Position numbers and translations under genes: made by a program. From an uncultured Gammaproteobacteria bacterium (lineage in GTDB: Bacteria; Patescibacteriota; Microgenomatia; UBA10105; UBA927), in the NCBI GenBank assembly GCA_964621305.1, contig CAZUOM010000001.1:165448-229447 (forward strand): 64,000 nucleotides of DNA, written 5' to 3'. Within the stretch, counting starts at the first letter, position 1. Each line of letters starts with the position of its first letter. Below the pieces are notes generated by a model, which did not search any database, was not told where the DNA came from, and was given only the letters and a program-made list of their open reading frames with translations. Below, one piece after another: positions 2,195 through 58,928 of this stretch.

Positions 2195-2800
2195 ATGACT
2201 GATCTTGTCTATTGGTTCGGATCGCTCATAATAGCCATCACTATCCACGAATTTGCCCATGCGGTGGCGGCGGACCGGCTTGGAGACCCCACCCCCAGAC
2301 TCCAGGGGCGGATCACCCTTAACCCCCTCTCGCACCTGGACCCAGTGGGCACGATCATGCTCCTTCTGGTTCACTTCGGTTGGGGCAAACCCGTCCAGTT
2401 CGACCCGTTTAACCTGCGCCACCCCAGGCGGGACGCAGCCATCATCTCCCTTGCGGGGCCGGCGGCAAATTTAGTATTAGCGACGATCATCTCAATTCTT
2501 CTTCACTTTATAAACTTTATAAACATTACAAACTTTCTAACTACGCTGGTAGTTTTAAACGTCGTCCTTGCTGTTTTTAATCTCCTACCCCTTCATCCGC
2601 TCGACGGATTTAAAATCGTCGGCGGCATCTTACCGACAGAATATGCCAAAAGCTGGTACGAGCTGGAGCGCTACGGCATACTTTTTCTCCTGTTTCTCCT
2701 CTTCCCAATCTTTGGAAGTACTGCACCAATTACAAAAATCGTCACACCGGTTATCAGTCTCGTACTGGGTATCCTTCTACCCCGCGCACCAGTTATCTAA
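2195..2800 (+). CDS. site-2 protease family (peptidase M50) integral membrane metalloprotease
   Basis: HEFAHA (HExxH) in the first TM segment, downstream LLPLHPLDGFKIVGG (LDG motif), and a multi-pass hydrophobic profile. Confidence 0.7.
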   Translation: MTDLVYWFGSLIIAITIHEFAHAVAADRLGDPTPRLQGRITLNPLSHLDPVGTIMLLLVHFGWGKPVQFDPFNLRHPRRDAAIISLAGPAANLVLATIISILLHFINFINITNFLTTLVVLNVVLAVFNLLPLHPLDGFKIVGGILPTEYAKSWYELERYGILFLLFLLFPIFGSTAPITKIVTPVISLVLGILLPRAPVI

Positions 2801-3049
2801 ACAAATTGCCCTTGACATATGTACTCGCCTTGCTCTACGATAGGAGTTGCCTGGTGTGGAGCTTTGAGGCGATTTTCCTCCACAAATTCAAAAACAATGA
2901 GGTAGTCTTGCTGAATTCCTCAGCGGGGCAACAGGACGATGTCTCCGAGCTCCTTGGAGTTTCGGAGCAGTCCCTCCGATATTTCTAGTCGGGGAAAATC
3001 TTCAAAGCCATCCAGGCCATGAAATTATTCTTCGCCAAATCTACAGACT

Positions 3050-3078
3050 TTGTCGTTTTCCCATCTACCTATTATAAT
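3050..3078 (+). promoter_or_regulatory. sigma70-like promoter upstream of the tRNA-Thr locus
   Basis: TTGTCG (3050-3055), 17-nt spacer, then TATAAT (3073-3078), about 35 nt before the first tRNA exon. Confidence 0.4.
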
Positions 3079-3114
3079 GTGACTAGGTGCTTGAGCGGGG
3101 TCCCGTAACATTAT

Positions 3115-3348
3115 GCCGCCTTGGCTCAGTGGTAGAGCGAGTGTTTTGTCCCAGCACTATCTTGCCCCGCCGAGCGGGGCGTAGAAGTGCGGGATCCCAT
3201 ACTTTTAAGCTGGCGTAGCTCAATGGCAGAGCAACTGTTTTGTAAACAGTAGGTTGGGAGTTCGATCCTCCCCGTCAGCTCAAAATAACCGCCAGCAAAA
3301 AGTACTGGGATAAACACTAGGTCGTCGGTCCGATCCCGACAGGCGGCT
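3115..3348 (+). tRNA. split or interrupted tRNA-Thr(UGU)-like gene: 5-prime half 3115-3149, 3-prime half 3312-3348, with a 162-nt insert in the anticodon loop that contains a complete tRNA-Thr
   Basis: 5-prime half: GCCGCCT-TG-GCTC-AGTGGTA-GAGC-G-AGTGT-TTTGT. 3-prime half: AA-ACACT-AGGTC-GTCGG-TCCGATC-CCGAC-AGGCGGC-T. Acceptor, anticodon and T stems all pair perfectly, and the rejoined loop is TTTGTAA. The insert 3150-3311 ends in 9-bp inverted repeats CCCAGCACT / AGTACTGGG. Confidence 0.45.
3209..3280 (+). tRNA. tRNA-Thr (anticodon UGU)
   Basis: Manual cloverleaf: acceptor GCTGGCG/CGTCAGC (one GU), D arm GCTC-AATGGCA-GAGC, anticodon arm ACTGT-TTTGTAA-ACAGT, T arm GGGAG-TTCGATC-CTCCC. No encoded CCA. 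Confidence 0.85.
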
Positions 3349-3641
3349 CAAAACGAAAGGCTTCTGAAGACGTTTTCCACTTCTATCATGGTTTTTTTGT
3401 TTCCCTTGTAAAACATCCGCGCACCGATCTGATACCTAGTGACAAATCCCACTTTTATGAGCTCTTTAAGGTGATGGGCAAGGAGGCTTTGCGAACATGG
3501 CATATGGATAGCAAGCTCTTTGAGCCTCATGTCACTTTGTGACAAAAGGTGCAAAATAGCAATCCGATGCGGGTGAGCTATGGCATGCAGGATGCCAGCC
3601 TCTTTGGCAGATCGCACAATTAGTTTCTTGCCGGCAAGCAT
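3348..3641 (-). CDS. ArsR/SmtB-family HTH transcriptional regulator
   Basis: 97 aa; winged-helix region HPHRIAILHLLSQSDMRLKELAIHMPCSQSLLAHHLKELIKVGFV typical of ArsR. Confidence 0.65.
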   Translation of the reverse strand: MLAGKKLIVRSAKEAGILHAIAHPHRIAILHLLSQSDMRLKELAIHMPCSQSLLAHHLKELIKVGFVTRYQIGARMFYKGNKKTMIEVENVFRSLSF

Positions 3642-3667: not shown

Positions 3668-3752
3668 GCCGAGGTGGCAGAGCAGTCAAATGCACCAGTC
3701 TGTAAAACTGGTGGCCGAAAGGCCTACCTAGGTGCGAATCCTAGCCTCGGCA
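3668..3752 (+). tRNA. tRNA-Tyr (anticodon GUA), class II with a long variable arm
   Basis: Acceptor GCCGAGG/CCTCGGC, anticodon arm CCAGT-CTGTAAA-ACTGG, variable hairpin GGCC-GAAA-GGCC, T arm CTAGG-TGCGAAT-CCTAG. A TATAAT box sits at 3652-3657 upstream. Confidence 0.85.
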
Positions 3753-3805
3753 CAGAGCACCTAAATACCCTCTTGCATCGAAGAGACAAGGTTGTCTATA
3801 CTTAG

Positions 3806-4368: not shown

Positions 4369-4440
4369 GCCGTCGTAGTTCAGTGGTAGAACGTCTTCTT
4401 GGTAAGAAGAAGGTCATGGGTCCAATTCCCATCGACGGCT
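4369..4440 (+). tRNA. tRNA-Thr (anticodon GGU)
   Basis: Acceptor GCCGTCG/CGACGGC, D arm GTTC-AGTGGTA-GAAC, anticodon arm TCTTC-TTGGTAA-GAAGA, T arm ATGGG-TCCAATT-CCCAT. TATAAT at 4354-4359. Confidence 0.85.
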
Positions 4441-4565
4441 CCGTGAATCTAATATCTCTTTTTTCTACCGCTGTATTTGCCGCTGAAGTCGTTCTTTCAC
4501 CCGTACCCGATGAATTGGCCGGTTATATATATCCAGGCTTTCATCAGCCGAGTGTTAGCTTTGGT

Positions 4566-5315: not shown

Positions 5316-6368
5316 ACGGTCGTTTAACAATTTACTCGTACCCCTGGCATCACGAATAAAATCTGGCAAGTGTGCCTTACCGGTCACCGGACTTTTCGGG
5401 AGAAATGCTTCGTATCGATCCATCAAGGTTACTATTTGGTCCGGGCAACTCTGCATCATACGAAAAATTTCATCTTGGATCGCTTTATAAAAACTGTTTG
5501 CCTCCTGTAATCGAGTACGCAAATGATCAGGGACAGGAGCATTTCTTTTTTTCAAAGCCTCAATTTGTCCTTCCTCTTCATTGGTCAGCGAAACTGCGGC
5601 ATAAATCATAGAATATAAATCTAGCACGGCTATGTTTTCGTCTTCTCTCCTAATGGGAGACGCAGGATCAACATCGATAATATTAGCTATCGGTACGCCC
5701 GCTGATAAAGAATAGCGATTTTTTTTTCGCAATACCCGCTGCCCGAGGCTTGTGATGACGTTCCAATCAGTCTCTGGGTGAAGTAGCGAGATGCGCCGTT
5801 CATCCTCCATCTTATCTAAAAAATCAACGACCTGCCCAAATAGTACCTGTGCGGAGCTGAGTTCATCATAACTATTGGAATTTACACAAACATCGTTGAT
5901 CACATCGAGGGCTTGTTGGATCCTCGACTTGTTGGGGTTTGCTTTATGCAAGTAATATAGTCGGGCTCGCAAAACCTCTCCGTCATTAGTCCAGCGGTCC
6001 AACATATCTTTAAAATACTCCTCCACATCAGGATGTATGTTTTCCAACCCAGGTACTCTAACACTATCAGCATTTAGTTGACGATTTCTTTGACTGAACA
6101 GATATGGATTATTCTCAACTGCATACCGCGCAGAGTCCAGGATTGCTGGTAATGATCCAGATTCGACTACGTATCGGATTCTGACCTTGTCATTATTGGT
6201 CATCCCCACACCGCTTTGGCATCCCATAACAACCGGTACCAACACTCTAGTAGCTATAGCCTCAGTAGACAATTGATTGTTAGAAAGTAAAATCGCAAGA
6301 TCAGCAACCGACGGATCGACTGACTTAGGGTGAGAAATATCAATTGCACTATTATGTTCTTTTGCCAT
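5307..6368 (-). CDS. hypothetical protein (353 aa)
   Basis: Long ORF with no recognisable motif; divergent from the 6444-8498 gene. Confidence 0.5.
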   Translation of the reverse strand: MAKEHNSAIDISHPKSVDPSVADLAILLSNNQLSTEAIATRVLVPVVMGCQSGVGMTNNDKVRIRYVVESGSLPAILDSARYAVENNPYLFSQRNRQLNADSVRVPGLENIHPDVEEYFKDMLDRWTNDGEVLRARLYYLHKANPNKSRIQQALDVINDVCVNSNSYDELSSAQVLFGQVVDFLDKMEDERRISLLHPETDWNVITSLGQRVLRKKNRYSLSAGVPIANIIDVDPASPIRREDENIAVLDLYSMIYAAVSLTNEEEGQIEALKKRNAPVPDHLRTRLQEANSFYKAIQDEIFRMMQSCPDQIVTLMDRYEAFLPKSPVTGKAHLPDFIRDARGTSKLLNDRSL

Positions 6369-6443
6369 AAAGCGTGAAATAACAGAACAAATACCGTATA
6401 CTTACACTTCTTGGCTCAATAATATATCTTAAAAAAAAGGCCT

Positions 6444-10380: not shown

Positions 10381-10823
10381 AAGAGGCTTAGAAGCTTAGT
10401 TATTTAGAAGCTTAGAGCTTATGACTTCTTTCAATTTCGAAGGGCTTACGGTCTATCAACGCTCCTTGGTATTCTCACAAAGAATTTTTGAAATATCCCG
10501 GGATTGGCCGAAAGAATACCTCTTTGGGTTAACGGATCAATTACGGCGTGCGTCATTATCCATTCCTTTAAATATTGCTGAGGGAAGCAGTAGGACAAAA
10601 AAAGATTTTAGACATTTTTTGATTATTTCTCGAGGGTCTTGTTTTGAATCCATTCCTCTGATAAAACTGGCACATTCTTTAAAACTCCTTACTTCAATCG
10701 AGGAACAAACTTTGTATAATGAACTGAACGAGATAGCTCGTATGCTTAGTGGTCTTCGGTCATCTCTCGGGAGTATCTAACCAAGCTACTAAGCATCTCT
10801 AAGCCACTAAGCATCTTTTAACC
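10381..10823 (+). mobile_element. IVS-like cassette: four-helix-bundle gene bracketed by 3x GCTTAG (5-prime) and 3x CTAAGC (3-prime) inverted hexamer arrays
   Basis: GCTTAG at 10386, 10394 and 10411, immediately after the rpmG stop. CTAAGC at 10789, 10799 and 10807, immediately after the ORF stop. The arrays are mutually complementary and could form a long-range stem enclosing the ORF. An empty version of the same repeat sits at 2080-2155. Confidence 0.5.
10421..10780 (+). CDS. four-helix bundle protein (23S rRNA intervening-sequence protein family)
   Basis: 119 aa, YQRSLVFSQRIFEISRDWPKEYLFGLTDQLRRASLSIPLNIAEGSSRTKKDFRHFLIISRGSCFES. Matches the conserved core of IVS-encoded four-helix-bundle proteins (GLTSQLRRAAVSIPSNIAEG...F..FL.IARGS..E). 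Confidence 0.75.
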   Translation: MTSFNFEGLTVYQRSLVFSQRIFEISRDWPKEYLFGLTDQLRRASLSIPLNIAEGSSRTKKDFRHFLIISRGSCFESIPLIKLAHSLKLLTSIEEQTLYNELNEIARMLSGLRSSLGSI

Positions 10824-11339: not shown

Positions 11340-11486
11340 TTACATCAAATACTCATCAATGATATAATTATGAAGTTAGGGCTGTGATGAAATGGTATCA
11401 TGGCGCTCTCCAAAAGCGCTCTTCCCCGTCCGAGTCGGGGCAGCCCTGCAAAATTACTACAAAAACTCAGGTTGCACCTAATTTTT

Positions 11487-47507: not shown

Positions 47508-48563
47508 TCAGTCGCGAATCTTGAGCGTCTCACGGGAAAAAACTATGTTTTTTGGTTTAATGACGACTTGTTTTTTCCCATTTCTCACGCTCCCCGCGTG
47601 CCACGCGTGAAATCCCTTCTTTTCTGCAATCGCAATGGCCCGCGCCACAGCATTTGCTCGTACGTAGAGCGCAAATCCGGCGCCCATGTTGAAGGTTTCA
47701 AACATCTCCCGATCACTAAGCTTGCCGTGTTTCTGTAAAAAGGAAAATAGCGGTGAGTCTGGAGGCGTCTCTTCGATCACGTACGTAAATGCTCGGGTTG
47801 GTCGCATGAGCTTTCGCCACCCGTGGCCGGTAACGTTGACCGCGTAATGAATATCAACGCCTGCGTCAAAAAGCGCTGACATGAGCCGGGCATAGATATG
47901 GGTAGATCGAAGCAGCGCTTCGCCATACATGAAGCCGTTTGTAAGCTTCGTGGCATAGCCTCCCGGCAGAACATCCGCAATCGCGCGGGCAAGCGTCAAA
48001 CCGTTTGCATGGATGCCACTGCTTTCGACCAAAACGATTGCGTCGCCGTGAGTAATTGCCTCTCCCAAAAGCAGGCGCTTTTTGGGTTTGACGATACCGA
48101 TTGCCGACCCGGCAATGTCTATAACAGCCGGCTCAACAATCCCTTTAAGCGTGGGCGTTTCCCCGCCGCCCCAGACCGCACCCGCGAGACTGCAGGCGTT
48201 TGCCCAACCACGAATCAGATCGCCTGCCCGCTTTTTATCTTCAAACCATCGACAGTCGCCAACGGCAAAGTAGGCATTGACGACTTCAGGTTTGGCGCCA
48301 ACCGTGATGAGATCGTTAACGATCATCGCTAGCGCGTCTTGGGCGATGGCATCGTAGTAGGTCTTGCCGTTAATAGGCCGCATTGCGTCAGCCACGAGAC
48401 TCTTTGTTCCGAGCCCCTCAATCACCATCGCTCGATAACAATCCCGCTCTTCCCAGACATAGGCCGACTCTCCGCGAATCGCGCTTCCTCCTGTTCTTTT
48501 CGCGGCGCGCTGCGCGGCGATTTTGAAGGAATCAAGAATCGTATAGTTTACCTGATAGTGCAT
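47508..48563 (-). CDS. purM: phosphoribosylformylglycinamidine cyclo-ligase (AIR synthetase, PurM-like)
   Basis: PurM/AIRS-family architecture as the last gene of the pur operon. Start placed at ATG 48561-48563 (MHYQ...) rather than the GC-rich 55-aa extension in the track. Confidence 0.65.
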   Translation of the reverse strand: MHYQVNYTILDSFKIAAQRAAKRTGGSAIRGESAYVWEERDCYRAMVIEGLGTKSLVADAMRPINGKTYYDAIAQDALAMIVNDLITVGAKPEVVNAYFAVGDCRWFEDKKRAGDLIRGWANACSLAGAVWGGGETPTLKGIVEPAVIDIAGSAIGIVKPKKRLLLGEAITHGDAIVLVESSGIHANGLTLARAIADVLPGGYATKLTNGFMYGEALLRSTHIYARLMSALFDAGVDIHYAVNVTGHGWRKLMRPTRAFTYVIEETPPDSPLFSFLQKHGKLSDREMFETFNMGAGFALYVRANAVARAIAIAEKKGFHAWHAGSVRNGKKQVVIKPKNIVFSRETLKIRD

Positions 48564-49519
48564 AGCGAGTCGCGGATGCGTTCTTCGATCGTGTACCCAA
48601 ACGCCCGGAATGCCCGGCCGGTAAGTTTTTCGTAGACGGCGATGTAGCGCCGGGCAAGCGCAACAATGAGATGTCTGGGCATTTCGGGCGGCGGCCCGTC
48701 CCCGCGGTAGCCGCGCTTGGCATACCAAAGTCGCAGGAACTCCTTGTCAAAGTTCTCCGGCTCAAGCCCGCGCTTGACGCGTTCCTTATACGTATCGGAT
48801 ACCCAGAAACGTGAGGAGTCGGGCGTATGGATTTCGTCAATAAGCATAAGTTTGCCCTTATATAATCCAAATTCGTATTTGGTATCAACAAGGATAAGGC
48901 CGCGTTTTCTGCAAAGCCTGCTCCCAAAATCGAATAGCTTACGCGAAATTTTTTCCATCTCTTCATAGAGTTTTTTCGGAACTATCTTCTTTTTTATGAT
49001 TTCCCCGCGGGTCAGCCGTTCGTCATGAAGCGCGCTTCCGGCAAGAGGGTGCGTTGTTGGTGTAATGATCGCAGAGGCAAGTTGCTGATTCTTTTTCAAT
49101 CCGTCGGGAAATCTGATGCCATAGATCATCCGCTCGCCGCGCTCGTAGGAGTACCATATGGAGGTTTTCGTGACACCGGAGATGTAACCGCGCACGATCA
49201 TCTCCACCGGAATCGGCTTGCATTCACGCGCAATCATCACGTTGGGGTCCGGTACGGCGATCATGTGGTTGGGGACGATGTGTTTGGTTTTCTCAAACCA
49301 AAACTGCGACAGGAGATTAAGAACCGCTCCCTTAAATGGGATATGTCCGAGGATGACGTCAAATGCCGATTGTCGATCCGTGGTCACGAGAATCCTCTTG
49401 CCCTCCACTTTATAGAAATCTCGCACCTTGCCCTGATATTTTTTCCCCAAGCCAGATACGTCAACGGTTTTGAGCACCGACGGTAACGCGCGAAGTATTG
49501 TTTTTGATTGCACCATCAT
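48548..49519 (-). CDS. purC: phosphoribosylaminoimidazole-succinocarboxamide synthase (SAICAR synthetase, long form)
   Basis: 323 aa; YKGKVRDFY ... LILVDTKYEFG and general PurC-like similarity. Confidence 0.75.
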   Translation of the reverse strand: MMVQSKTILRALPSVLKTVDVSGLGKKYQGKVRDFYKVEGKRILVTTDRQSAFDVILGHIPFKGAVLNLLSQFWFEKTKHIVPNHMIAVPDPNVMIARECKPIPVEMIVRGYISGVTKTSIWYSYERGERMIYGIRFPDGLKKNQQLASAIITPTTHPLAGSALHDERLTRGEIIKKKIVPKKLYEEMEKISRKLFDFGSRLCRKRGLILVDTKYEFGLYKGKLMLIDEIHTPDSSRFWVSDTYKERVKRGLEPENFDKEFLRLWYAKRGYRGDGPPPEMPRHLIVALARRYIAVYEKLTGRAFRAFGYTIEERIRDSLCTIR

Positions 49520-50013
49520 TGCCTCCTTTTCTCCAACCTCTTTGATTTTTCTACGACCGCTTTGGCTTGCTGCTTTTTGAATACCACAAGCTTTTTTTGA
49601 AGCGACGGGTCCCCCACCGCAAGGATTTGGAGAGCCAGAAGCCCGGCATTTTTTGCGCCGTTGATACCCACCGTCGCCACGGGAACGCCGGGAGGCATCT
49701 GCACCGTAGAGTAGAGTGAATCCATGCCGCCAAGCGCCGCGGTTTGTATCGGAATACCAACAACCGGCAACGGAAATTCTGATGCAATAACTCCGGCCAG
49801 ATGCGCTGCCCCGCCGGCCGCCGCGATAATAACTTTTATCCCTCGCGCAACAGCAGTTATGGCAAACGCGTGGGTCTCCCGTGGGCTTCTGTGCGCCGAA
49901 AGAACAAGTAATTCATAGGAAACGCGAAACTGGTCAAGGATATCCGTCGCATCCTTCACAACTGGTAAATCCGAATCTGACCCCATGACGACTGCGACAG
50001 CCGGTTTATTCAT
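49516..50013 (-). CDS. purE: phosphoribosylaminoimidazole carboxylase catalytic subunit / N5-CAIR mutase
   Basis: 165 aa; VAVVMGSDSDLPVVKDA ... SAHRSP signature. Confidence 0.8.
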   Translation of the reverse strand: MNKPAVAVVMGSDSDLPVVKDATDILDQFRVSYELLVLSAHRSPRETHAFAITAVARGIKVIIAAAGGAAHLAGVIASEFPLPVVGIPIQTAALGGMDSLYSTVQMPPGVPVATVGINGAKNAGLLALQILAVGDPSLQKKLVVFKKQQAKAVVEKSKRLEKRRQ

Positions 50014-51412
50014 AATGAATCGTTTTTGTTATCCGTTTCGCAAGCTCTCGCGCCCGCTTGGGCGCATCGCCGACGTGACGGGATACGTCCAGAAGCATCT
50101 CTATTTCCGAAAGCTTTAAATATCGTGCCAGTCGTTTGTCGTCCCTCAAGAGTTGCGCCATCGGGTTGGGTTTGCCTGCTCCAACTGCTTGCCACGCTTC
50201 CATTGACACGGTCCGCAACAATTCGTGCATTTCCTGCCGGTTGGCGCCGCGCTTGACGGCTTCGATGATAATAACCTCCGTTGCCGCAAACGAGCCGTAT
50301 TGGGCGAGATTATAGGCAATGCGCTCTTTGTTGATCACCAAACCCTTGAGGATTTTTTGGGCTGACAAGAGGATTTCGTCAAGAGCTAGAAACGCCTCGG
50401 GAATAACGAGGCGGCGATTGGCGCTGTCATCGAGGGTGCGCTCCAGGTGAGAAAGGGTCGCATTCTCAAGGAAAATAGCCGGAAGATGGGAAAGGTAGCG
50501 CGCAAGCGAACATATCTTTTCGCTGCTCACCGGATTTTTCTTAAACGGCATGGCGGAAGACCCTACCTGCTTTTCCCCAAACGGCTCGCTCCACTCACCG
50601 ATACCCGGCGACTGAAGGATGCGAAGATCCTCCGCGAACTTGGCCACAGATTGCGCCGTGCTTGCCAGAGCGCAAAGCAGCCAGTAATCCACTTTTCGGG
50701 GATACACTTGCGTCGTGACCGGAAACGCTTCAATGTGCAGCCGATTCAACACCACTTCCTCCATCTTCGCCGCCGTGCTATTCGTCCCTTCCAAAAGCTT
50801 CTTGTAACTTGCCGCCGTGCCGACAGCACCCTTGAAGCCCTTGCCCCGAAGATCCTGGAGTTCAATGTATCGGCACATTGAAGTGTCCATCAGTAAGTCC
50901 TGAGCGTAGACCGCCAGGCGATAGCCGACCGTTGTCGGTTCTGCCGGCTGGAGGTGGGTATAGCCCAGGCATGGTACCGAGGCGTATGTTTTTACTTTTT
51001 CTGCAAAAAGCTTGAGCAGGTCGTCAACTTGTTTTTTGATAATTACCATCGCTTCCCGCATGCGTATCGTGTCTGCATTGTCCACGATGTCCATACTCGT
51101 TGCGCCCAGGTGAATTTTTGCTGCCCCGATTGTTGCTTTCTCTGCAAACTCCCGGATAGCGGCCACCACGTCGTGCTTCGTTTCTTTCTCGAGTTCCAGG
51201 ATCCTACCGATGTCGATATCTTCCTCGTGCTTCTCCAAATCGCGAAGTTCCTCGCGCGATAACAGACCGGCCACATGGTGCGCGCGGGCCAGTTCGACCC
51301 AAATCCTACGCCATCGTTCGTATTTATAACGTTCGCTCCAGATCCAACGCATCTGCCGGCTCCCGTAACGCCAGGAAAAAGAAGAAAGATAGGTGGTAAA
51401 GTCAAAAACCAT
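50006..51412 (-). CDS. purB: adenylosuccinate lyase
   Basis: 468 aa; fumarate-lyase family signature GSSAMPFKKNP; pur operon context. Confidence 0.8.
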   Translation of the reverse strand: MVFDFTTYLSSFSWRYGSRQMRWIWSERYKYERWRRIWVELARAHHVAGLLSREELRDLEKHEEDIDIGRILELEKETKHDVVAAIREFAEKATIGAAKIHLGATSMDIVDNADTIRMREAMVIIKKQVDDLLKLFAEKVKTYASVPCLGYTHLQPAEPTTVGYRLAVYAQDLLMDTSMCRYIELQDLRGKGFKGAVGTAASYKKLLEGTNSTAAKMEEVVLNRLHIEAFPVTTQVYPRKVDYWLLCALASTAQSVAKFAEDLRILQSPGIGEWSEPFGEKQVGSSAMPFKKNPVSSEKICSLARYLSHLPAIFLENATLSHLERTLDDSANRRLVIPEAFLALDEILLSAQKILKGLVINKERIAYNLAQYGSFAATEVIIIEAVKRGANRQEMHELLRTVSMEAWQAVGAGKPNPMAQLLRDDKRLARYLKLSEIEMLLDVSRHVGDAPKRARELAKRITKTIHYE

Positions 51413-51413
51413 G

Positions 51414-52469
51414 TTATGTCGTTATCTTCTCTAAAGCATTATGTTCCGTCGCATCGTGGATTTCCATGGCGATGCGTCTTCCCATGCTTACTGATTCTCC
51501 ATATAAATACCCGCTGTACGGGGTTGCGGCAATTCCCGGCGAGCCGGGCATACGCGGCGAGACATCAACCACGACGATCTCCTTTTTTCGCTTCCCGGAT
51601 ACGATGATCGCCTGCAGGGCAAACGGCCCGATGATTCCTGGCGGGACGAGCGTTTGGGTGGCTTTTATAAACCGCTCGGCCATGGCAAACGCCTCCTCCA
51701 GCATCGATTCTACCACGGTGACGGCGATATGCCCAGTTTCTTCAAACGAAACAGTAACGTTTTTCTGATACGCAGCCGGCAAGCGCACTAGGCCGTCGAT
51801 ATTCGTCTGACGGCGCGTGTCCGTCCCCAAAAGTTCCAGCCGTTTACGAATCGGAGAATAAAAAAAATGGAAGTTCACCGCTACGCCAACCGCGTATTCT
51901 TCGATAACCGCCCGTTCCAGCGCCGGCGCTGTTATTTTTCCTGATCGTAGCATTGCCCGCGACGTTTGCAGGAAGCTTTTTTCATCACGGCAAAGGAAAA
52001 ATGCCCGTTCCCACGGACGGTCTTTCTCGCTTACCTTGACTATCACAAGCCGGTCGATGTTCTTTGGTGAGAGAAAATGTTGCGGAAACCGAATATTGGC
52101 TTCTTTGAGAAGGTCATACTGATTTGGACGTTTTGCGCGCTCTTCGTACTTCAAGAGGTATTTATTGCCGAACAAAGGCACCGTAAAGCGCGTCTCGATA
52201 GCCTTGTAATCAAAGTTGCAATATGCCTCAAACGACCGGTGCGGCACAAACGCACAGCACTTTTTTTGTAACGTTTTCTGCACCGCGGGCGTAAGTATGT
52301 CAGAAAACTGCTCAAGCACAAGGCACTCGTCCACACAACATTTGTAATACTCACGATAGGTTTTTTCCCTGCCTTTTTGCGCAACGACGAGCGTGCCAAG
52401 CCCTTCATCTTTGGCCCCGCGGCAGATGTCCAGAGCAGAATGACTCCCAAGGGTAGCAATGGTAACCAT
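51414..52469 (-). CDS. purP: archaeal-type FAICAR synthetase (PurP-like, ATP-grasp), copy 1
   Basis: N-terminus MVTIATLGSHSALDICRGAKDEG, characteristic of PurP; 351 aa. Confidence 0.6.
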   Translation of the reverse strand: MVTIATLGSHSALDICRGAKDEGLGTLVVAQKGREKTYREYYKCCVDECLVLEQFSDILTPAVQKTLQKKCCAFVPHRSFEAYCNFDYKAIETRFTVPLFGNKYLLKYEERAKRPNQYDLLKEANIRFPQHFLSPKNIDRLVIVKVSEKDRPWERAFFLCRDEKSFLQTSRAMLRSGKITAPALERAVIEEYAVGVAVNFHFFYSPIRKRLELLGTDTRRQTNIDGLVRLPAAYQKNVTVSFEETGHIAVTVVESMLEEAFAMAERFIKATQTLVPPGIIGPFALQAIIVSGKRKKEIVVVDVSPRMPGSPGIAATPYSGYLYGESVSMGRRIAMEIHDATEHNALEKITT

Positions 52470-52475
52470 ATATAG

Positions 52476-53480
52476 CTAGCTTACTAAGCAATCAACGATC
52501 CCTTTGCGATGGGCGATTTTAATATCCCGCGCAATCCTCCTTCCCGTGCTCATTGGTTCATCATATAGGAGTGAAGCGTACGGGGAACTATCGATGAAGA
52601 GATTCGTGCCGGCGACGATGCGGCAGGATACTTCTATCACATAAAACTGCTGGTCGGGAGTGACGATCGTCTCCAGACAAAACGGCCCGAAGAGGCCCCG
52701 CTCGTCAATAAGCTTTTGCGATGTGACTACCAACCGTTCGGCCATTGCGTACGCCTCCGGCAGGAGCGACTCACGCAGAGACAAGGGGCTATTGCCGACC
52801 ACGACAAATGACGGCGTGATATCAATGCGCTCTTGGTGCGCAAGCGGCATGCGCCCCAGAGAATCAACGTTTGTTTCGTATCTCCGGTCGATACTTAACA
52901 GTTCCATGGTCTTCGTTATCGGTGAGTAATAATAGTGAAGGTAGATGGGAACGCCAACGATGTACTCCTGCACAATGAAGTCCTTCTTGGTAAATAACGA
53001 AATCTTTTTCTCAAAATCCTTTTGACTATGCGCGACGAAATACCCTCTTCCGCCGTCGGCGCCATAGGACTTGACGATCACCGGCCGGTCAATCCGGTCG
53101 CGGCGGGAAAACTTGCGCGGCAGCCTAATCCCTGCAGACGCAAGCCAGTTAAGCTGCTTTTTGCGGTCTGCTTCCCAGTCCAGCACTGCTTTGTTGCCAA
53201 AGTACGGTAGACTTATTGCTTTGTTGCCCTCGATACCGAGGTAGGCAATGAACGATCCGTGAGGAATAACAATAACATGGCGTCTGGAAATACTATGCTG
53301 TACCTCGGGGAAGTCTCCGTATGAAGATATGGTGATAATGTCATCGATGAAGCGAAACCGCCGGTAAAACGCCTCGCGGTCGGATTGCGTGATGAGCAGT
53401 GTCGAAAAACCCTCGTCTTTTGCCCCTTTCATTATCTGAAGGGCGGTATGGCTCCCCAGCGTTGCAATCGTATACATCAT
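52476..53480 (-). CDS. purP: archaeal-type FAICAR synthetase (PurP-like), paralogous copy 2
   Basis: MYTIATLGSHTALQIMKGAKDEG; 334 aa; paralog of the adjacent gene. Confidence 0.6.
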   Translation of the reverse strand: MMYTIATLGSHTALQIMKGAKDEGFSTLLITQSDREAFYRRFRFIDDIITISSYGDFPEVQHSISRRHVIVIPHGSFIAYLGIEGNKAISLPYFGNKAVLDWEADRKKQLNWLASAGIRLPRKFSRRDRIDRPVIVKSYGADGGRGYFVAHSQKDFEKKISLFTKKDFIVQEYIVGVPIYLHYYYSPITKTMELLSIDRRYETNVDSLGRMPLAHQERIDITPSFVVVGNSPLSLRESLLPEAYAMAERLVVTSQKLIDERGLFGPFCLETIVTPDQQFYVIEVSCRIVAGTNLFIDSSPYASLLYDEPMSTGRRIARDIKIAHRKGIVDCLVS

Positions 53481-54217
53481 AGAAAATACCGCACTGCGTT
53501 CTGAAATATCCTAAGGCCCGGCCCGAATTTCGGAACCCGTTTCCCTTTTCTTCGATACGTTTCCTTAAGATGCGTCCAGTATGGCAACTGGGTAAAGAAG
53601 ATCGCCCGCTCCGGATGCGGCATGAGGCCTAAAATTCTTCCGCTTGTATCGGTAAGTCCGGCAATACAATCAAGCGTTCCCGTCGGATTTTCGCTTACGT
53701 ATCGTATCGCAATAGTTCGCTTTTGTTTCATTGCCGCCAGAGTCGTGGCATCAGCATATAGTTTCCCCTCGCCGTGGGCAATAGGGAGAGAAAGCGTCGT
53801 TATTCCTGCAAGCCACGGAGTTTCGCGCTCAACACTTAGATCCGTCCATCGGACAATATAACGGCCCGAGTCGTTCGGAAGAAGAGCCACACGAGGAAAT
53901 ACACCAAGCGCAACGAGTATCTGAAACCCGTTACAAATACCGATCACCAACCCATCGCCATCGATATATGTTCGTAGTTGTTCTCCCAAGAAGTGGTTCA
54001 GTTTCCTCGCATAGGCATTGCCGGCACCGGTATCGTCGCCGTAAGAAAATCCGCCGGGAATGGCCAGAATCTGATACGCCCGCAATTTTTTGGATCCGGC
54101 GATGAGATCGTTGATATGGATGATATCTGCGCTCGCTCCGGCCAGTTCAAACGCAAACGCCGTTTCCTCTTCGCAGTTGAGGCCGTAGCCGGAAAACACT
54201 AATACTCTAGGTTTCAT
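53477..54217 (-). CDS. purQ: FGAM synthase glutamine amidotransferase subunit
   Basis: 246 aa; MKPRVLVFSGYGLNCEEE class-I GATase N-terminus typical of PurQ. Confidence 0.8.
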   Translation of the reverse strand: MKPRVLVFSGYGLNCEEETAFAFELAGASADIIHINDLIAGSKKLRAYQILAIPGGFSYGDDTGAGNAYARKLNHFLGEQLRTYIDGDGLVIGICNGFQILVALGVFPRVALLPNDSGRYIVRWTDLSVERETPWLAGITTLSLPIAHGEGKLYADATTLAAMKQKRTIAIRYVSENPTGTLDCIAGLTDTSGRILGLMPHPERAIFFTQLPYWTHLKETYRRKGKRVPKFGPGLRIFQNAVRYFL

Positions 54218-56843
54218 ACGTTCGATATGCCTTTATACATGTCTCAAGCGCTGTGCGCTGGCCACCAATGACGATCTCGGGAGTTTTGGTTACGACACCG
54301 ATAGGCTTGCAACCGGAGCCTTCCATCATGCGCTCAAACGTTGGCTTCTTTTTCGGATTGACGGATACGATGACCTTTCCCATTTTGAGCGAAACGTCAA
54401 CGCCGAGCATTCCTGCCATCGCGGATTTGGCAACGGCCGCCGCCATCCCCCCACGGCTGACGACCATGGCAGAGGCGACTAGCTCGCGTCGTATTGCCAG
54501 GGCGAGCGCGTCGTACATAGACTTTGCGCCGCTCAATACGTACACGAGGTCGCCGGGAAACTTGAAATCGATCGTGACGCTTTTTCGCACGTCTCGGATG
54601 ATTCCGATTGCCGAAATGAGAAGCGTAGGGAGAATGGAAATGCTCACGGGATTGCCATGTTCGTCAAATCCGGAAAAATCGTTGAACATGCTGTCTTTGC
54701 CGGAAATAAACGGCGTCCCGTAGGCCATTGCCCCGTCGTAGCAGCCCCGTGCCGCCTCTTTGAGCTGCCAAAGTCGCGTGGGGTCCTTGGCGCTTGACCA
54801 GCAGAAGTTATCAAGAAGAGCGATCTTCTCCGGATCCGCACCCGCCGCTACCGCACGCAGTACTGCTTGGCTGATCGTCACCCTCGCCATTTGGTACGGA
54901 TTGTGCTCGCCAAACTCCGGATGCAACGCGTGGGTGAGAACGATTCCTCTATTAGAAGAAAGAATGGGCCGGATGACGGTTGCATCCCCGTTCACCCGGC
55001 CTTTACCCTGAAGGGGCTTGGTTACAGACGTCCCTTGCACCTCATGGTCAAACTGTTGGCTGATCCAAGAAAATCCCGCGATTGACGGATGCGAGAGCGT
55101 TTCCGGACGGAATGGGCTTGCCTCATTCGGAGGGGCTCGTCGCGGCTGCGGCTTCGTATGAAGCGGTATGCGTGGAAACCCATTGTGGAGGAAATCCATG
55201 GAAAGATCCATCACTTTTTTCCTGCGGTACCGCACGATGCATCGTCCGGATTTGGTAAATGTTCCGATTACGCTCGCCTCCACGCCGCGACGACTACAGA
55301 GTGCTTTCAATTTCCTCCATTCCTTTTTGGGTACTGCAAGGGTCATGCGCTCCTGGGATTCGGAGATCCATATCTGCCAGGGCGTAAGACCAGGATACTT
55401 AAGCGGCACGCGGTCAAGGTCAACTAAACAACCGCCCGAGTCTCTGGCCATTTCCGCAACCGAACACGACAGTCCGCCGGCGCCGTTATCGGTAATGCTA
55501 TGGTACAATCCGCGATCGCACGCTTCTCGAATCAGCATATCCGAGAGTTTCTTTTGCGTAATCGGGTCGCCAATCTGGACCGCCGTGGCGGGGCTGCCGC
55601 TGGTTAACGCTTCAGAAGAAAAAGTCGCGCCGTGGATACCGTCCAGCCCCACGCGACCACCAATCATAACGACGAGATCGCCAGAACGGGCGCCTTTTCG
55701 CATACGCGATCGCGGCAGGATCCCTACGGTTCCCACAAACACGAGCGGCTTGCCTCCATAGCGTGGATGCGTCAGGACAAATCCCTGCGGCGTGGGAATA
55801 CCGGAGCAGTTTCCGCCGCTGTTGACACCGGCAACGACGCCGTCGAGTATTCTCCTCGGCGTAAGCCGCGGTTGTGTACATTTCTTATCGCGGTATAGGT
55901 CTGTCTTGTCGCTCAAATCGCCCACACAAAACCCGTAGGTGTTGGCAACGGGCTTGGCGCCCAGGCCAAAGCCGATGCAATCGCGGTTCACTCCCACGAT
56001 GCCGGTGATCGCTCCGCCGAAGGGATCAAGCGCCGACGGGCTATTGTGCGTTTCTACTTTATGCGTCACCACCCATCGGCGGTCAAAGGCAATCGCGCCT
56101 GAATTATCCGAGAATACACTCACACAGAAATCTTTCCTTCCCTTTTTCTTCCGGATCTCTTCGGTCGCACGCTTTATATAGCGGCGGAACAGGCCTTCGG
56201 CAATATTATCAATGGGACTGTTAAAAATCGTATGCTTGCAGTGCTCGCTCCACGTCTGTGCGAGGGATTCAAGCTCCACATCCGTCGGATCCCTGCCGAG
56301 ATTGCGAAAATGTGTCTGTATGGCTCTCATGGAGGGAAGATCCAGAGCAAGCGGCCCCCGACGCGACCCGTCTGCGTTTTTGATACCGAGTTTACCGATT
56401 GTCACAAGTTCCTCATCGGAGACATCAAGGGAAACCTTGTCTGCTTTTATTCTATTTGTCAAACGAACTCGTGGGACAGGCAGGTTTTCATTAATCGCAA
56501 CACGCTGGATGAGAGGATTTATTGGGAGTTCCACGTAGGTAATTTGCGAAGTATAGACCCCTTCGCCCTGGACAAAACGTACCCCCAATTCATCCTCAAT
56601 CATCTCTCGGACGGTATGGCCAACATTATCCGTCACCCCCGGGAGAAACCCTGTCTCAAAGGCCCGGGTACATGACGCCGGTCTGGGAAACGCATTGATA
56701 TAAAAACGCTCGGACACGGGGTTAGCCAGGAGACGGCCGATTGTTCGCAACTCTCTGACCGAAAACCGTTTTTCAATAGTATAAACTCGCACGGGCGATT
56801 GCCCCTCGGCAATAGCGGAGACTACAAATATTCTATGTACCAT
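54207..56843 (-). CDS. purL: FGAM synthase II, with an N-terminal PurS-like extension (purSL fusion)
   Basis: 878 aa; about 80-aa N-terminal PurS-like segment followed by the PurM-like repeats of PurL. Confidence 0.8.
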   Translation of the reverse strand: MVHRIFVVSAIAEGQSPVRVYTIEKRFSVRELRTIGRLLANPVSERFYINAFPRPASCTRAFETGFLPGVTDNVGHTVREMIEDELGVRFVQGEGVYTSQITYVELPINPLIQRVAINENLPVPRVRLTNRIKADKVSLDVSDEELVTIGKLGIKNADGSRRGPLALDLPSMRAIQTHFRNLGRDPTDVELESLAQTWSEHCKHTIFNSPIDNIAEGLFRRYIKRATEEIRKKKGRKDFCVSVFSDNSGAIAFDRRWVVTHKVETHNSPSALDPFGGAITGIVGVNRDCIGFGLGAKPVANTYGFCVGDLSDKTDLYRDKKCTQPRLTPRRILDGVVAGVNSGGNCSGIPTPQGFVLTHPRYGGKPLVFVGTVGILPRSRMRKGARSGDLVVMIGGRVGLDGIHGATFSSEALTSGSPATAVQIGDPITQKKLSDMLIREACDRGLYHSITDNGAGGLSCSVAEMARDSGGCLVDLDRVPLKYPGLTPWQIWISESQERMTLAVPKKEWRKLKALCSRRGVEASVIGTFTKSGRCIVRYRRKKVMDLSMDFLHNGFPRIPLHTKPQPRRAPPNEASPFRPETLSHPSIAGFSWISQQFDHEVQGTSVTKPLQGKGRVNGDATVIRPILSSNRGIVLTHALHPEFGEHNPYQMARVTISQAVLRAVAAGADPEKIALLDNFCWSSAKDPTRLWQLKEAARGCYDGAMAYGTPFISGKDSMFNDFSGFDEHGNPVSISILPTLLISAIGIIRDVRKSVTIDFKFPGDLVYVLSGAKSMYDALALAIRRELVASAMVVSRGGMAAAVAKSAMAGMLGVDVSLKMGKVIVSVNPKKKPTFERMMEGSGCKPIGVVTKTPEIVIGGQRTALETCIKAYRTYET

Positions 56844-58110
56844 AGGCTTGACCTCCTATATCGCGCCGGTATTGCATTCCTTCAAAACGCACGCCACCGG
56901 ACCCAATTACCCCGTATGCACGCCGGATGGCGGCTTCGATCGTTTCTCCGTATGCCGTCACTCCCAGAACTCTCCCGGCGCTTGTAACGACGCCGCGATC
57001 GTTCAGGAGCGTCCCTGCGTGAAACATCCGGATATTCGGATCACGCACGGTATCCAATCCCTCAATGAGCACTCCTTTTGCGCAAGGCCCGGGGTAGCCG
57101 GCGCAGGCCAGTACCACACAGACGCTAGCCCCCGGGCGAAACCGTACCATCTCCGGCTCGAGGGTCCCGTTCATACATGCAAGAAGAATAGGCGCAAGGT
57201 CAGATTTCAAAAGCAACATGAGGGGTTGCGTTTCCGGGTCGCCGAAGCGCGCGTTGTACTCAAGCACCTTCGGCCCCTGCGCTGTGAGCATAAGGCCCGC
57301 GTAGAGCACTCCTTTATACGGATAACCTTCTTTACGCATGCCCTCAACCGTCGGCTGTAGGATGGTCCGGTGAATCTCTCTGATATCAATATCGGCAACC
57401 GGAGCATACGCGCCCATGCCGCCGGTGTTGGGGCCGCGATCCCCGTCGCCAATACGCTTGTAATCCCGTGCCGGCAAAAGCGGCACGGCGCTTTTGCCGT
57501 CGCAAAACGCCAATACCGATAGCTCCGGACCGGTGAGCCGTTCCTGAATGACGATGGTGCGGCCGGCACCGCCAAAGGACCTACCCGAAAGCATTTCCCG
57601 CACCGCAGCTTCTGCCTCCTCCAGCCCATCCGGAAGGATAACTCCCTTTCCTGCTGCCAACCCATCTGCTTTGACAACCATCTTTCCCCAGGGGAAACGG
57701 CGAACAAAACGGATCGCCTCTTGCTCATCGAGAAAAACCCAGGAGCGTGGGTGCGCAATACCGTGCCGCGCCATAAAACCCGCTGCCCACGCCTTGCTCG
57801 ATTCCAGCTTCGCTGCGGCTGCCGTCGGTCCGAATATTGGCAGTCCCCGGGCTTGAAACTCATCGACTATACCCATCGCAAGCGGCGCCTCCGGCCCAAC
57901 GACCGTGAGATCCAACCTCAATTTATCTGCTAATTCGCTAAGTCCGGCGATATCTTCAGCCGGTATTGGAATATTTTCTCCAATTTCCGCCGTCCCCGCG
58001 TTTCCCGGCGCAAAATAAAGTCTTCCTGACTTGCCAAGTTTCCACCCCAACGCGTGCTCCCGACCGCCGGAGCCAACGATCAAAACCTTTTTTTGTTTTG
58101 GCATCAGCAT
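56833..58110 (-). CDS. purD: phosphoribosylamine-glycine ligase (GAR synthetase)
   Basis: 425 aa; KVLIVGSGGREHALGWKL N-terminus and ATP-grasp core. Confidence 0.85.
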   Translation of the reverse strand: MLMPKQKKVLIVGSGGREHALGWKLGKSGRLYFAPGNAGTAEIGENIPIPAEDIAGLSELADKLRLDLTVVGPEAPLAMGIVDEFQARGLPIFGPTAAAAKLESSKAWAAGFMARHGIAHPRSWVFLDEQEAIRFVRRFPWGKMVVKADGLAAGKGVILPDGLEEAEAAVREMLSGRSFGGAGRTIVIQERLTGPELSVLAFCDGKSAVPLLPARDYKRIGDGDRGPNTGGMGAYAPVADIDIREIHRTILQPTVEGMRKEGYPYKGVLYAGLMLTAQGPKVLEYNARFGDPETQPLMLLLKSDLAPILLACMNGTLEPEMVRFRPGASVCVVLACAGYPGPCAKGVLIEGLDTVRDPNIRMFHAGTLLNDRGVVTSAGRVLGVTAYGETIEAAIRRAYGVIGSGGVRFEGMQYRRDIGGQAYGT

Positions 58111-58112
58111 AC

Positions 58113-58928
58113 TTACGGATACAACTGCACGGCCAACTCTTTTGCTTGCATTGCGCTACCCTGGTACTCATCGGGAATAAGCGGGTTGGGGCGTTGAAAC
58201 GAAGGAAACTTGCCCATCGTACCATAGGCGGCAAGCGCGGCAATAACATTTTGGTGTTCTAATGGAAGAAGCAACTTCTGAAGACTAGCTGTTCGTCTTT
58301 TCAATTCGTCCGGTGATTGCCGGAGTTGCGCAATAGTTAGGGCACGAGAAGCTCGCGGCAATTCGAGCCGCTCAACACGGATAAGTTCTCCCTGATCGTA
58401 CGCTTCCGTCACATGGTGTACCGTGGACTCGGTCCACGCGTCGCCATCGGTTACCCAACAGTAGGCAAGGCGCGCGCACACGACTCGCGCTCCGTACATG
58501 CCCTTTCCACCAAAGTCCACTCTTCCCGGATCAAGAGGGCCTGGGTGCTGGTTAATGATCCTGCCTCGATATGCTTGGACAACCGATTCCGGCGTCAGAG
58601 GCAACCAGCCGTTTTGACTCACGAGAAGAACGTTATATTTTTGAAACATGCCAAGAAGTGCTTCCCCGAACGCATCGAGGCTGGTGAAATTTCTCCGTGC
58701 AACAGTCTCTGTAGGTATATCCATCGCCCTTGCACGATCTAAACCTCGCGCATCGTGTCTACTGGCAATGACCACCACCGGACGAATGTGAGAAATTTCG
58801 CCATGCTGGCACGCCCGGATCACCGCCTCCGCCGTTGTCCCCTCGCCGGAAATCAAAAAAGCCGTGTTTATCTCACTTTCTTTCATATATAACATTTCCG
58901 AATCGATCAATCGGGGGCTTATGTCCAA
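58113..58928 (-). CDS. purN: phosphoribosylglycinamide formyltransferase-like protein
   Basis: Formyltransferase motif IINQHPGPL and pur operon position. Longer than typical PurN (271 aa), so the start is uncertain. Confidence 0.55.
   Translation of the reverse strand: MDISPRLIDSEMLYMKESEINTAFLISGEGTTAEAVIRACQHGEISHIRPVVVIASRHDARGLDRARAMDIPTETVARRNFTSLDAFGEALLGMFQKYNVLLVSQNGWLPLTPESVVQAYRGRIINQHPGPLDPGRVDFGGKGMYGARVVCARLAYCWVTDGDAWTESTVHHVTEAYDQGELIRVERLELPRASRALTIAQLRQSPDELKRRTASLQKLLLPLEHQNVIAALAAYGTMGKFPSFQRPNPLIPDEYQGSAMQAKELAVQLYP

Follow-up and report, generated by a model that had tools for sequence, protein, structure and literature searches.

How can a bacterium survive the interruption of a tRNA gene in its anticodon? 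Members of the Patescibacteria have tiny genomes, usually with one gene for each tRNA, and an insertion into the anticodon of tRNA-Thr(UGU) should therefore be lethal. A stretch of 64,000 nucleotides (nt) from contig CAZUOM010000001.1 (assembly GCA_964621305.1), called the window here, holds just such a gene. The halves of one tRNA-Thr(UGU), the outer tRNA, are parted in the anticodon loop by a 162-nt insert, and within the insert lies a second, complete tRNA-Thr(UGU), the inner tRNA. We consider it probable that the insert is a site-specific replacement element without an open reading frame (ORF), a cassette that kills the resident tRNA-Thr(UGU) gene while supplying a substitute; it belongs to a family recurrent at this locus across the Microgenomates. 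An earlier annotation made from the letters of the DNA (the sequence-only reading) had offered two explanations: a micro-element with terminal inverted repeats at its ends, inserted with a replacement tRNA as its cargo, or an unconventional intron with re-ligated outer exons.

Structure of the nested tRNA unit

The insert, at 3149-3310, separates outer pieces of 34 and 38 nt (Table 1), the first ending with the loop nucleotides TTTG and the second starting with TAA. After its removal in silico, ARAGORN calls a 73-nt tRNA-Thr(tgt) with all four stems perfect, and the rejoined anticodon loop has exactly 7 nt with no target-site duplication. A tRNA-Thr(UGU) profile (nhmmer) matches the outer 5' half to model positions 1-35 (E=9e-6) and the outer 3' half to positions 35-72 (E=2e-4); these matches flank a full-length match to the inner tRNA, which is also detected by ARAGORN and Rfam (ending at 3280 in one call) and makes up 73 of the 162 nt. 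The claims that two half-genes rebuild a perfect cloverleaf and that a complete, divergent tRNA-Thr(UGU) lies between them are both borne out. Comparison across the family places the insertion point between anticodon nucleotides 35 and 36 (TTTG^T...A^TAA, the caret marking a junction), although the window has T at both junctions and the insert is readable as 3150-3311 equally well. The earlier length of 162 nt stands, and the half-gene limits of 3115-3149 and 3312-3348 are corrected to those of Table 1. The T arm of the outer tRNA likewise pairs perfectly, as stated before, but its TCCGATC loop has C at position 55, a point that had been missed. There is no ORF inside the insert, and neither tRNA encodes CCA.

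Structurally, the insert consists of two consecutive palindromes, H1 and H2, with a common foot (TCCCA...GGGA), the inner tRNA being held in the loop of H2. Its terminal inverted repeats, TCCCAGCACT and AGTACTGGGA, agree at 9 of 10 positions and are also present in other family members; the perfect 9-bp inverted repeat CCCAGCACT/AGTACTGGG announced in the sequence-only reading is complementary at only eight of its nine positions. H1 has a predicted free energy of -31.1 kcal/mol in the window and of -19 to -28 kcal/mol in relatives, and in no case was any of 300 shuffled sequences as stable. An alignment of H1 from six family members contains 21 pairs, 96% paired, of which nine have changed on both sides; none of 500 shuffles scored as high, and slid controls did not come close either. 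Across the family H2 is formed by the inner leader and the first 3-7 nt of the inner tRNA, paired with the trailer. This duplex has a predicted stability of -26.4 kcal/mol in the window and of -25 to -28 kcal/mol across the four complete cassettes, again unmatched by 300 shuffles. When the whole 234-nt unit is folded (z = -7.1), the outer cloverleaf is kept.

The TATAAT box proposed earlier at 3073-3078 was confirmed and could be extended to a full promoter, which is the only promoter-like site upstream of both tRNAs; the blocks TTTGTCGT and TA.AAT of this region are kept in relatives L005 and L007 (loci under comparison bear L numbers). The promoter scan found no promoter-like site between 3079 and 3209, and the H1 apex of the window is GC-rich and without a -10 box. 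Transcription of the inner tRNA must therefore start at the resident promoter and run through the outer 5' half. In AT-rich family members the H1 apex is TTTGATAAAAT or TTGTACAAT, the extended -10 motif of the native promoters of these loci, and by this resemblance their cassettes look like self-contained expression units.

Table 1. Features of the nested tRNA-Thr(UGU) unit and its borders, in window coordinates
Feature	Position	Strand	Description
Resident promoter of the tRNA-Thr(UGU) unit	3050..3078	+	-35 TTGTCG, 17-nt spacer, -10 TATAAT; promoter scan
Leader of outer tRNA	3079..3114	+	Bases 3095-3114 (GCGGGGTCCCGTAACATTAT) similar to the 3' part of the cassette X module
5' half of outer (resident) tRNA-Thr(UGU)	3115..3148	+	Acceptor GCCGCCT, D arm, anticodon stem AGTGT, loop TTTG to G35
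H1, 46-nt palindrome/hairpin, first module of the insert	3149..3194	+	TCCCAGCACT...AGTGCGGGA; folding and covariation
5' arm of H2	3194..3215	+	Inner leader (ATCCCATACTTTTAA) and first 7 nt of inner tRNA; inverted repeat with 3290-3311
Inner intact tRNA-Thr(UGU)	3209..3281	+	Canonical TTCGATC T-loop; ARAGORN; Rfam tRNA 69.3 bits
Trailer Y of the cassette	3282..3310	+	3290-3310 is the 3' arm of H2, ending CTGGGA
3' half of outer tRNA-Thr(UGU)	3311..3348	+	TAA, stem ACACT, variable loop, GTCGG-TCCGATC-CCGAC, AGGCGGC, discriminator T
ArsR-family regulator gene	3348..3641	-	ORF list; Pfam HTH_5

Which of the two tRNA genes belongs to the host can be judged from the surroundings. The neighbouring site-2 protease (M50) is closest to proteins of Candidatus Gottesmanbacteria and other Patescibacteria, by which the host is a Gottesmanbacteria-like member of the Patescibacteria; a cyanobacterial affiliation of the window was rejected, the flanking proteins being Gottesmanbacteria-like. 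The sequence-only reading had recommended comparison with the orthologous locus of relatives, and L007, with 70% protease identity, provides it: an uninterrupted tRNA-Thr(UGU) occupies the corresponding position there, preceded by the same conserved RNA and promoter. Its acceptor stem, GCCGCCT/AGGCGGC, is identical to that of the outer gene of the window and it has the same TCCGA T-loop with C55. Misreading of a tRNA-Asn(GUU) as Thr, a known pitfall of introns at position 35/36, was rejected because the stem register and the L007 orthologue are clearly those of Thr(UGU). In L005 and L140 the ArsR gene abuts an intact tRNA-Thr(UGU), and in L141 it abuts the outer 3' half. In the window the ArsR stop codon overlaps the outer tRNA at the discriminator base, by which the outer 3' half is marked as the original resident position.

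The T-loops also differ. U55 is near-universal in tRNA, and is lacking from the other tRNAs of the window (Thr-GGU, TCCAA; Tyr, TGCGA; Trp, TCCGA); the T-loop of the inner tRNA is the canonical TTCGA. The two tRNAs of the unit are 73% identical, with most differences compensatory, and of the whole unit only the inner tRNA matches ordinary bacterial and phage tRNA-Thr genes by BLAST. Because of the L007 orthologue, the T-loop differences and this inner-only match, the outer gene is identified by comparison as the resident one and the inner tRNA looks imported. The latter is presumed to be the working gene. As an observation in its own right, loss of U55 is seen at 3668-3753, 4369-4442 and 11378-11449 besides the outer tRNA at 3311-3348 (TGCGA, TCCAA, TCCGA), and sporadically in tRNA-Thr genes of L005, L007, L053, L073, L123 and L140; the tRNA-Trp at 11378-11449 is found by ARAGORN and not by the Rfam tRNA model.

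A family of cassettes in the Microgenomates

An 18-nt invariant block of the conserved RNA upstream of the unit served as the anchor for one genome scan and one metagenome scan, which together yielded 41 loci. Their lineages are Gottesman-, Levy- and Chisholmbacteria-like, and the gene order is the same in all 41: structured RNA, tRNA-Thr(UGU), tRNA-Tyr, tRNA-Thr(GGU). About one third (about 13) have one intact tRNA-Thr(UGU) gene with additional pieces of tRNA-Thr(UGU) about it. Besides the window, at least 11 loci from Microgenomates genomes and metagenomes have the anticodon loop of tRNA-Thr(UGU) interrupted by an insert that follows TTTG, and in L028, L119, L125/L118, L130, L137 and L141 this is the same cassette as in the window, consisting of an upstream module X, the tRNA and a trailer Y. 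Its design is TTTG^(T/C)CCCAG-hairpin-GGG(A/G)TCCC-leader, tRNA-Thr(UGU), trailer-CT(G/A)GGA^TAAAC. The unit of the window is the cleanest family member, with both shells intact.

Wherever the 5' junction lies inside a contig it follows TTTG, and the right junction, ^TAAAC, is seen in five loci, namely the window, L028, L119 and L141 (all four with CTGGGA^TAAAC) and L125 (CTAGGA^TAAAC). The contigs of L130 and L137 stop before the right junction, and that of L141, which was located via its ArsR neighbour, ends inside the inner tRNA and covers the right junction only. In L028, L119 and L125 the left junction is G^C and the right junction A^T, with no duplication. A second type of cassette occupies the same point in L061 and L103 (foot CCTGCCCG...CAGG.GGG), and inserts that are hairpins only directly follow TTTTG in L005, L113, L119 and L120. 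TTTTG^ precedes anticodon-loop inserts of every type, all of them in the orientation of the tRNA, with TTTTT^ in L103. Among the nested loci whose insert lies wholly in a contig none has an ORF inside it; these inserts are about 100-170 bp long and of the same compact design. The micro-element with a replacement tRNA, one of the two earlier explanations, accordingly holds up in substance and can be extended: the same design recurs at the same nucleotide in related genomes, with sharp boundaries and within different resident genes.

Comparison of the members points to transfer. The inner tRNA and trailer of L119 and L141 are identical at 81 of 84 positions, and the outer 3' halves that follow belong to different tRNA-Thr alleles (23 of 40 positions identical), the switch falling exactly at CTGGGA^. 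Hosts that agree at only 57-59% in the neighbouring structured RNA have X modules of 82-85% identity. A tRNA of the GCCGAGA type sits inside a shell of the GCCTCCA type in L125, and reciprocally the GCCTCCC type (L119) and the GCCCCTC type (L093) are nested in shells of the GCCGAGA type; tRNA types that are the sole copy in some lineages are inner or outer copies in others, in both directions. In the close relatives L116 and L129, with flanks about 85-97% identical, replacement can be followed at one locus: L116 has a foreign tRNA-Thr in place of the resident gene, of which a 22-nt 3' remnant with the resident trailer remains. Close relatives differ in state not only in this pair but also in L113, L137 and L121. 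From these comparisons we infer that the cassette is actively mobile. In the window itself the outer leader is identical to the inner leader at 14 of 20 positions in register and has a 13-mer, GCGGGGTCCCGTA, in common with the X module of L119; L005 and L007, the uninterrupted relatives, lack this X-like stretch, and this suggests that an earlier round may have taken place at the locus.

The outer halves, meanwhile, decay, as they have in every other member in which both are readable. They are truncated in L028 and L137 and degenerate in L103 and L093, the acceptor strands of L119 are non-complementary, and in L125, L130, L061 and L028 further palindromes break up the D arm and T loop of the outer halves. 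Once the inserts are excised in silico, the outer gene of the window alone passes ARAGORN, that of L125 doing so only at a relaxed threshold after three excisions; the outer 3' half of L141 looks intact. As the outer halves of other members are defective they are not under lasting selection, and this argues against obligatory splicing and for a fresh pseudogene status of the outer gene in the window, whose tRNA we infer to be non-functional.

The palindromes of the decayed outer halves deserve a description of their own. Those of the D arm always occupy the same spot (GGYAGA^ or GGYAG^) and were seen in L125 (1284-1330), L130 (2044-2120), L061 (7862-7905), L028 (minus strand, about 6330-6375) and L113 (986-1055). 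They are of two kinds, one with the foot CCTGCCCGC...GCGGGCAGG and the other a solo hairpin like H1, CCCCAGTAC...GTACGGGG. Similar palindromes are found in the T loops of L125, L028 and L116, and in these loci hairpin inserts seem to be drawn to dead tRNA shells, at each of the three loops. In L127, about 470-510 nt past the anchor, a 5' tRNA-like fragment with a hairpin insert (GGCCGGCGTGGCTCAGTT[CCGCCAAAGGCGG]ATAAAG...) stands ahead of an intact tRNA-Thr(GGU), and the phenomenon may not be limited to the UGU isoacceptor. Full-text literature searches for nested or interrupted tRNA genes, and for palindromic inserts in tRNAs of Patescibacteria, yielded no description of this arrangement, and the family is apparently undescribed.

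Mechanism and competing explanations

The mechanism that we propose would begin with the precise, duplication-free insertion of the 162-bp cassette between G35 and U36, which would split and destroy the resident gene, the foreign cargo tRNA-Thr(UGU) taking over. The whole unit would be transcribed from the resident promoter. The leader/trailer helix H2, of about 22 bp, may be cleaved by RNase III, and RNase P would cut the 5' end of the inner tRNA, to be followed by 3' trimming and CCA addition; this route is drawn from standard bacterial tRNA processing. The outer halves would be by-products, older outer shells would decay and layers could stack.

Insertion is nucleotide-precise and in a fixed orientation, with no target duplication or repeated core, a constant 5' flank (TTTTG) and hairpin termini. 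Since there is no target duplication, the 5' flank is constant, the orientation is fixed and hairpins are relied upon, single-strand transposition of the HUH type would fit better than an integrase, a serine recombinase, a DDE transposase or homing by homologous recombination. For want of any core repeat or duplication beside the insert, tyrosine- and serine-recombinase mechanisms and TA-duplicating (mariner-like) ones were not retained, and homing by homologous recombination is unlikely, as identity collapses at the junction between L119 and L141 with no co-converted flank.

Small non-autonomous elements provide one parallel. Miniature inverted-repeat transposable elements (MITEs), the Rickettsia palindromic elements and palindromes derived from IS200/IS605 are short, lack ORFs, have terminal inverted repeats or hairpins and are tolerated within genes. 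The cassette resembles them in its length, lack of an ORF and terminal inverted repeats and hairpins, and resembles the IS200/IS605 style in particular: no target is duplicated, the 5' flank and the orientation are constant, and the hairpin H1 is conserved. Unlike classic IS200/IS605 elements the cassette has inverted termini. MITEs and palindromic elements are usually multi-copy and dispersed, whereas the cassette appears confined to a single gene and to carry a functional cargo gene. It has the terminal inverted repeats expected of MITEs and DDE elements, with no target-site duplication and no dispersed copies in the 64-kb window; a high-copy MITE was rejected for want of further copies there of the terminal repeats or of GGGATCCC.

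A second parallel is found in rRNA. Intervening sequences (IVS), short non-intron insertions among them, are common in rRNA genes of the candidate phyla radiation (PMC11270868). Like IVS, the hairpin inserts are sporadic, stand at the loop tips of a structural RNA gene, have no ribozyme and are probably not followed by religation; H1 and H2 are such hairpins in the loop of a structural RNA gene, and their presence varies among close relatives. Once nicked in its anticodon loop, a tRNA no longer decodes. Fragmented rRNA still works, but an anticodon-cut tRNA does not, and the insert must therefore bring a substitute gene, which IVS do not, as they carry no tRNAs.

Several results weigh against the replacement cassette as we describe it. 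The insert has no ORF, and in a Pfam scan of 38 of the 40 ORFs of the window there was no match to a transposase, integrase, HNH nuclease, reverse transcriptase or RtcB, nor any TnpA (Y1 HUH) in this 64 kb of genome. Matches to the terminal repeats elsewhere in the window are at chance level (four found, 3.1 expected), and further copies of GGGATCCC are absent from it. Two scans of viral collections and BLAST against phages and plasmids revealed no free or phage-borne cassette: the former gave one chance match in a GC-rich coding region and otherwise nothing, the latter matched the inner tRNA only, to generic tRNA-Thr genes, and a phage- or plasmid-borne cassette was rejected. The argument for mobility is wholly comparative. 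Searches for homologues of the M50 protease and ArsR gave nothing closer than 80% and 64% identity, and hence no close relative with an empty site by which to date the event. Flawless outer halves fit a recent insertion and equally fit continued selection; the high conservation of X could reflect a function as promoter or processing signal instead of transfer; and the X-like leader ahead of the outer tRNA is only partly accounted for by the cassette model.

Of the competing explanations, the one that survives best, though we think it unlikely, is local rearrangement with no mobile element: a single duplication or fold-back synthesis in an ancestor of the Microgenomates, then vertical inheritance, decay and gene conversion. 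The similarity of the outer and inner leaders favours it, fold-back replication could yield a palindromic design, and the locus is syntenic in all lineages. It is hard to square with inner and outer tRNAs so divergent, each type being the sole copy in other lineages, or with nearly the same cassette in two resident alleles with a sharp break at the junction. Nor does it account for close relatives that differ in state, or for an X module more conserved across distant hosts than the functional RNA beside it.

Slightly less credible still is a scar of a larger phage or integrative element, whose integrase would have directed insertion into the anticodon loop and which, bringing its own tRNA-Thr, was later deleted down to 162 bp. 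Anticodon loops are reportedly classic crossover sites of integrases. Disruption of a tRNA with a carried replacement is documented for mycobacteriophages: in tRNA-dependent lysogeny a phage enters an essential tRNA gene, does not reconstitute it and supplies an isotype-matched tRNA (Guerrero-Bustamante & Hatfull 2024, PMC10865867). As a concept this is the closest of the known systems, since here too the outer Thr(UGU) is split and the element carries an intact tRNA of the same isotype. The actinobacteriophages that do this are of 40-100 kb, with a tyrosine integrase and a common core of about 10 bp (PMC10865867), whereas the cassette has 162 bp, the tRNA as its only gene, no core repeat, a position inside the anticodon and a truly nested order. 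A scar is also at odds with the uniformly compact, ORF-less inserts of those nested loci whose insert lies wholly in a contig. The loop core is not directly repeated at the junctions (TTTG on the left, TAA on the right), no integrase was seen in the window ORFs scanned and the viral scans had no relevant match.

The other earlier explanation, a functional intron formed by one tRNA within another, now seems very improbable. The inner tRNA would be released by RNase P and 3' processing, or by RNase III acting on the leader/trailer helix. Stem pairing would keep the outer halves together while they were trimmed and ligated (by RtcB, for example), one transcript thus giving two tRNA-Thr(UGU) species. 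The flawless outer halves of the window and the cloverleaf kept in the fold speak for it, as does the intact look of the outer 3' half of L141, and Patescibacteria tolerate tRNA introns at 35/36 (PMC13011429). These are self-splicing group I introns of 184-894 nt in tRNA-Asn, -Asp and -Tyr, preceded by U35 (Nakagawa et al. 2026, PMC13011429). They have in common with the cassette the phylum, the point of interruption and the ease with which tRNA finders miss them, but the cassette follows G35, is mostly tRNA, has no ribozyme core and leaves outer pieces that decay in relatives. A search of 2780-3500 with the group I covariance model (RF00028) had no match at the gathering score or at E<=10, the inner tRNA alone being found. 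The splice sites are also wrong, with G35 upstream at 35/36 and, at the alternative boundary 36/37 after U36, an insert ending in U and not G (GGGAU^AA); and the insert, at 162 nt, is shorter than the minimum of 184 nt for bacterial tRNA introns (PMC13011429). A classic tRNA group I intron was rejected on these three counts.

Protein-dependent splicing fares no better. We know of no bacterial enzyme set that trims and rejoins such tRNA halves, and RNA ligase and splicing endonuclease families were unmatched among the 38 ORFs scanned. Archaeal intron-containing, split and permuted tRNAs depend on a bulge-helix-bulge (two 3-nt bulges about a 4-bp helix where exon meets intron), the EndA endonuclease and a ligase, and their pieces are kept functional. 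The loci described here are like archaeal tRNA genes in pieces in being interrupted in the D, anticodon and T loops. Unlike them, they have pieces that decay, and inspection, with no formal motif search, of the junction TTTG^TCCCAG...CTGGGA^TAA and the predicted fold allowed no bulge-helix-bulge to be drawn. A further objection is the state of the outer halves in L028, L093, L103, L119, L125 and L137, which are truncated, mismatched in the acceptor or burdened with palindromes, a sign that selection does not act on them. Were the intron reading true, the intron would be of a new kind for bacterial tRNA: it would itself be a tRNA, and its splicing would depend on proteins.

A chimeric join of two genomes via common tRNA k-mers can practically be dismissed. 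The Logan contigs of SRR6943130 do end inside the inner tRNA (window 3225-3245), as does the contig of L141 at a similar place, but each outer/insert junction lies well within an independent Logan contig, the sequence is identical in three assemblies, including the NCBI metagenome-assembled contig of GCA_005239695.1, and the same design occurs in many unrelated samples. Because the pairings that span the break (inner acceptor stem, leader/trailer helix and outer stems) are all complementary, the arrangement is not chimeric. The breaks, which occur in two independent samples, likely stem from cassette tRNA sequence common to several genomes of the community, and the tRNA-Thr(UGU) cassette locus will often be broken or missing in metagenome assemblies.

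Surroundings of the locus and significance

Other features of the window merit a brief account. The conserved structured RNA used as the anchor is about 180 nt long, at 2848-3035 (plus strand) with a promoter at 2812-2841; all the Microgenomates loci retrieved have it immediately upstream of the tRNA-Thr promoter. Its sequence contains the invariant block AUUUUCCUCCACAAAUUC, and RNAalifold (16 sequences) predicts 31 pairs, 18 of them with compensatory changes. There was no match to it in Rfam even at E<=10; it might be a diverged RNA of the 6S type, or else a regulator whose CCUCC resembles an anti-Shine-Dalgarno sequence. At 10421-10780 (plus strand), 600 bp upstream of the tRNA-Trp, is a gene for a PF05635 '23S rRNA intervening-sequence protein' (E = 2.8e-31). 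Proteins of this family are typically encoded within hairpin insertions of rRNA genes and include the Avd proteins of diversity-generating retroelements; a link of this gene to the palindromic tRNA inserts would be pure speculation.

A single uninterrupted ORF of 8748 codons (26 kb; 12153-38399, minus strand) takes up 40% of the window. A near-complete purine biosynthesis cluster (PurD, PurN, PurL/PurQ, PurB, PurE, PurM-like and PurF-like) lies at 47508-60372 (minus strand) and also has two tandem DUF1246/DUF1297 genes of the archaeal PurP type. To our knowledge Patescibacteria are generally thought to be without nucleotide synthesis, which makes this cluster unusual. A 92-nt tRNA-Lys(ttt) called by ARAGORN at 57421-57512 (minus strand) is probably a false positive, as it falls inside the PurD-like coding region and has no Rfam support.

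The family shows a way round the expected lethality of an anticodon insertion, in that a cassette of roughly 160 bp, with no ORF, brings a copy of the very gene that it destroys. If truly mobile, it would be the smallest known element to break an essential gene and supply the replacement. Such a strategy would make the element hard to lose and would mean that lineages repeatedly exchange a core gene of translation. The fixed site of insertion (TTTTG^TAAA, without duplication) offers a concrete starting point in the search for the enzyme that moves the cassette. Three other things would be explained by the family: the odd leaders and pieces of tRNA beside tRNA genes of these genomes, the breaks in assemblies at this locus, and why tRNA finders can undercount or miscount tRNAs, a number used as a measure of genome quality.

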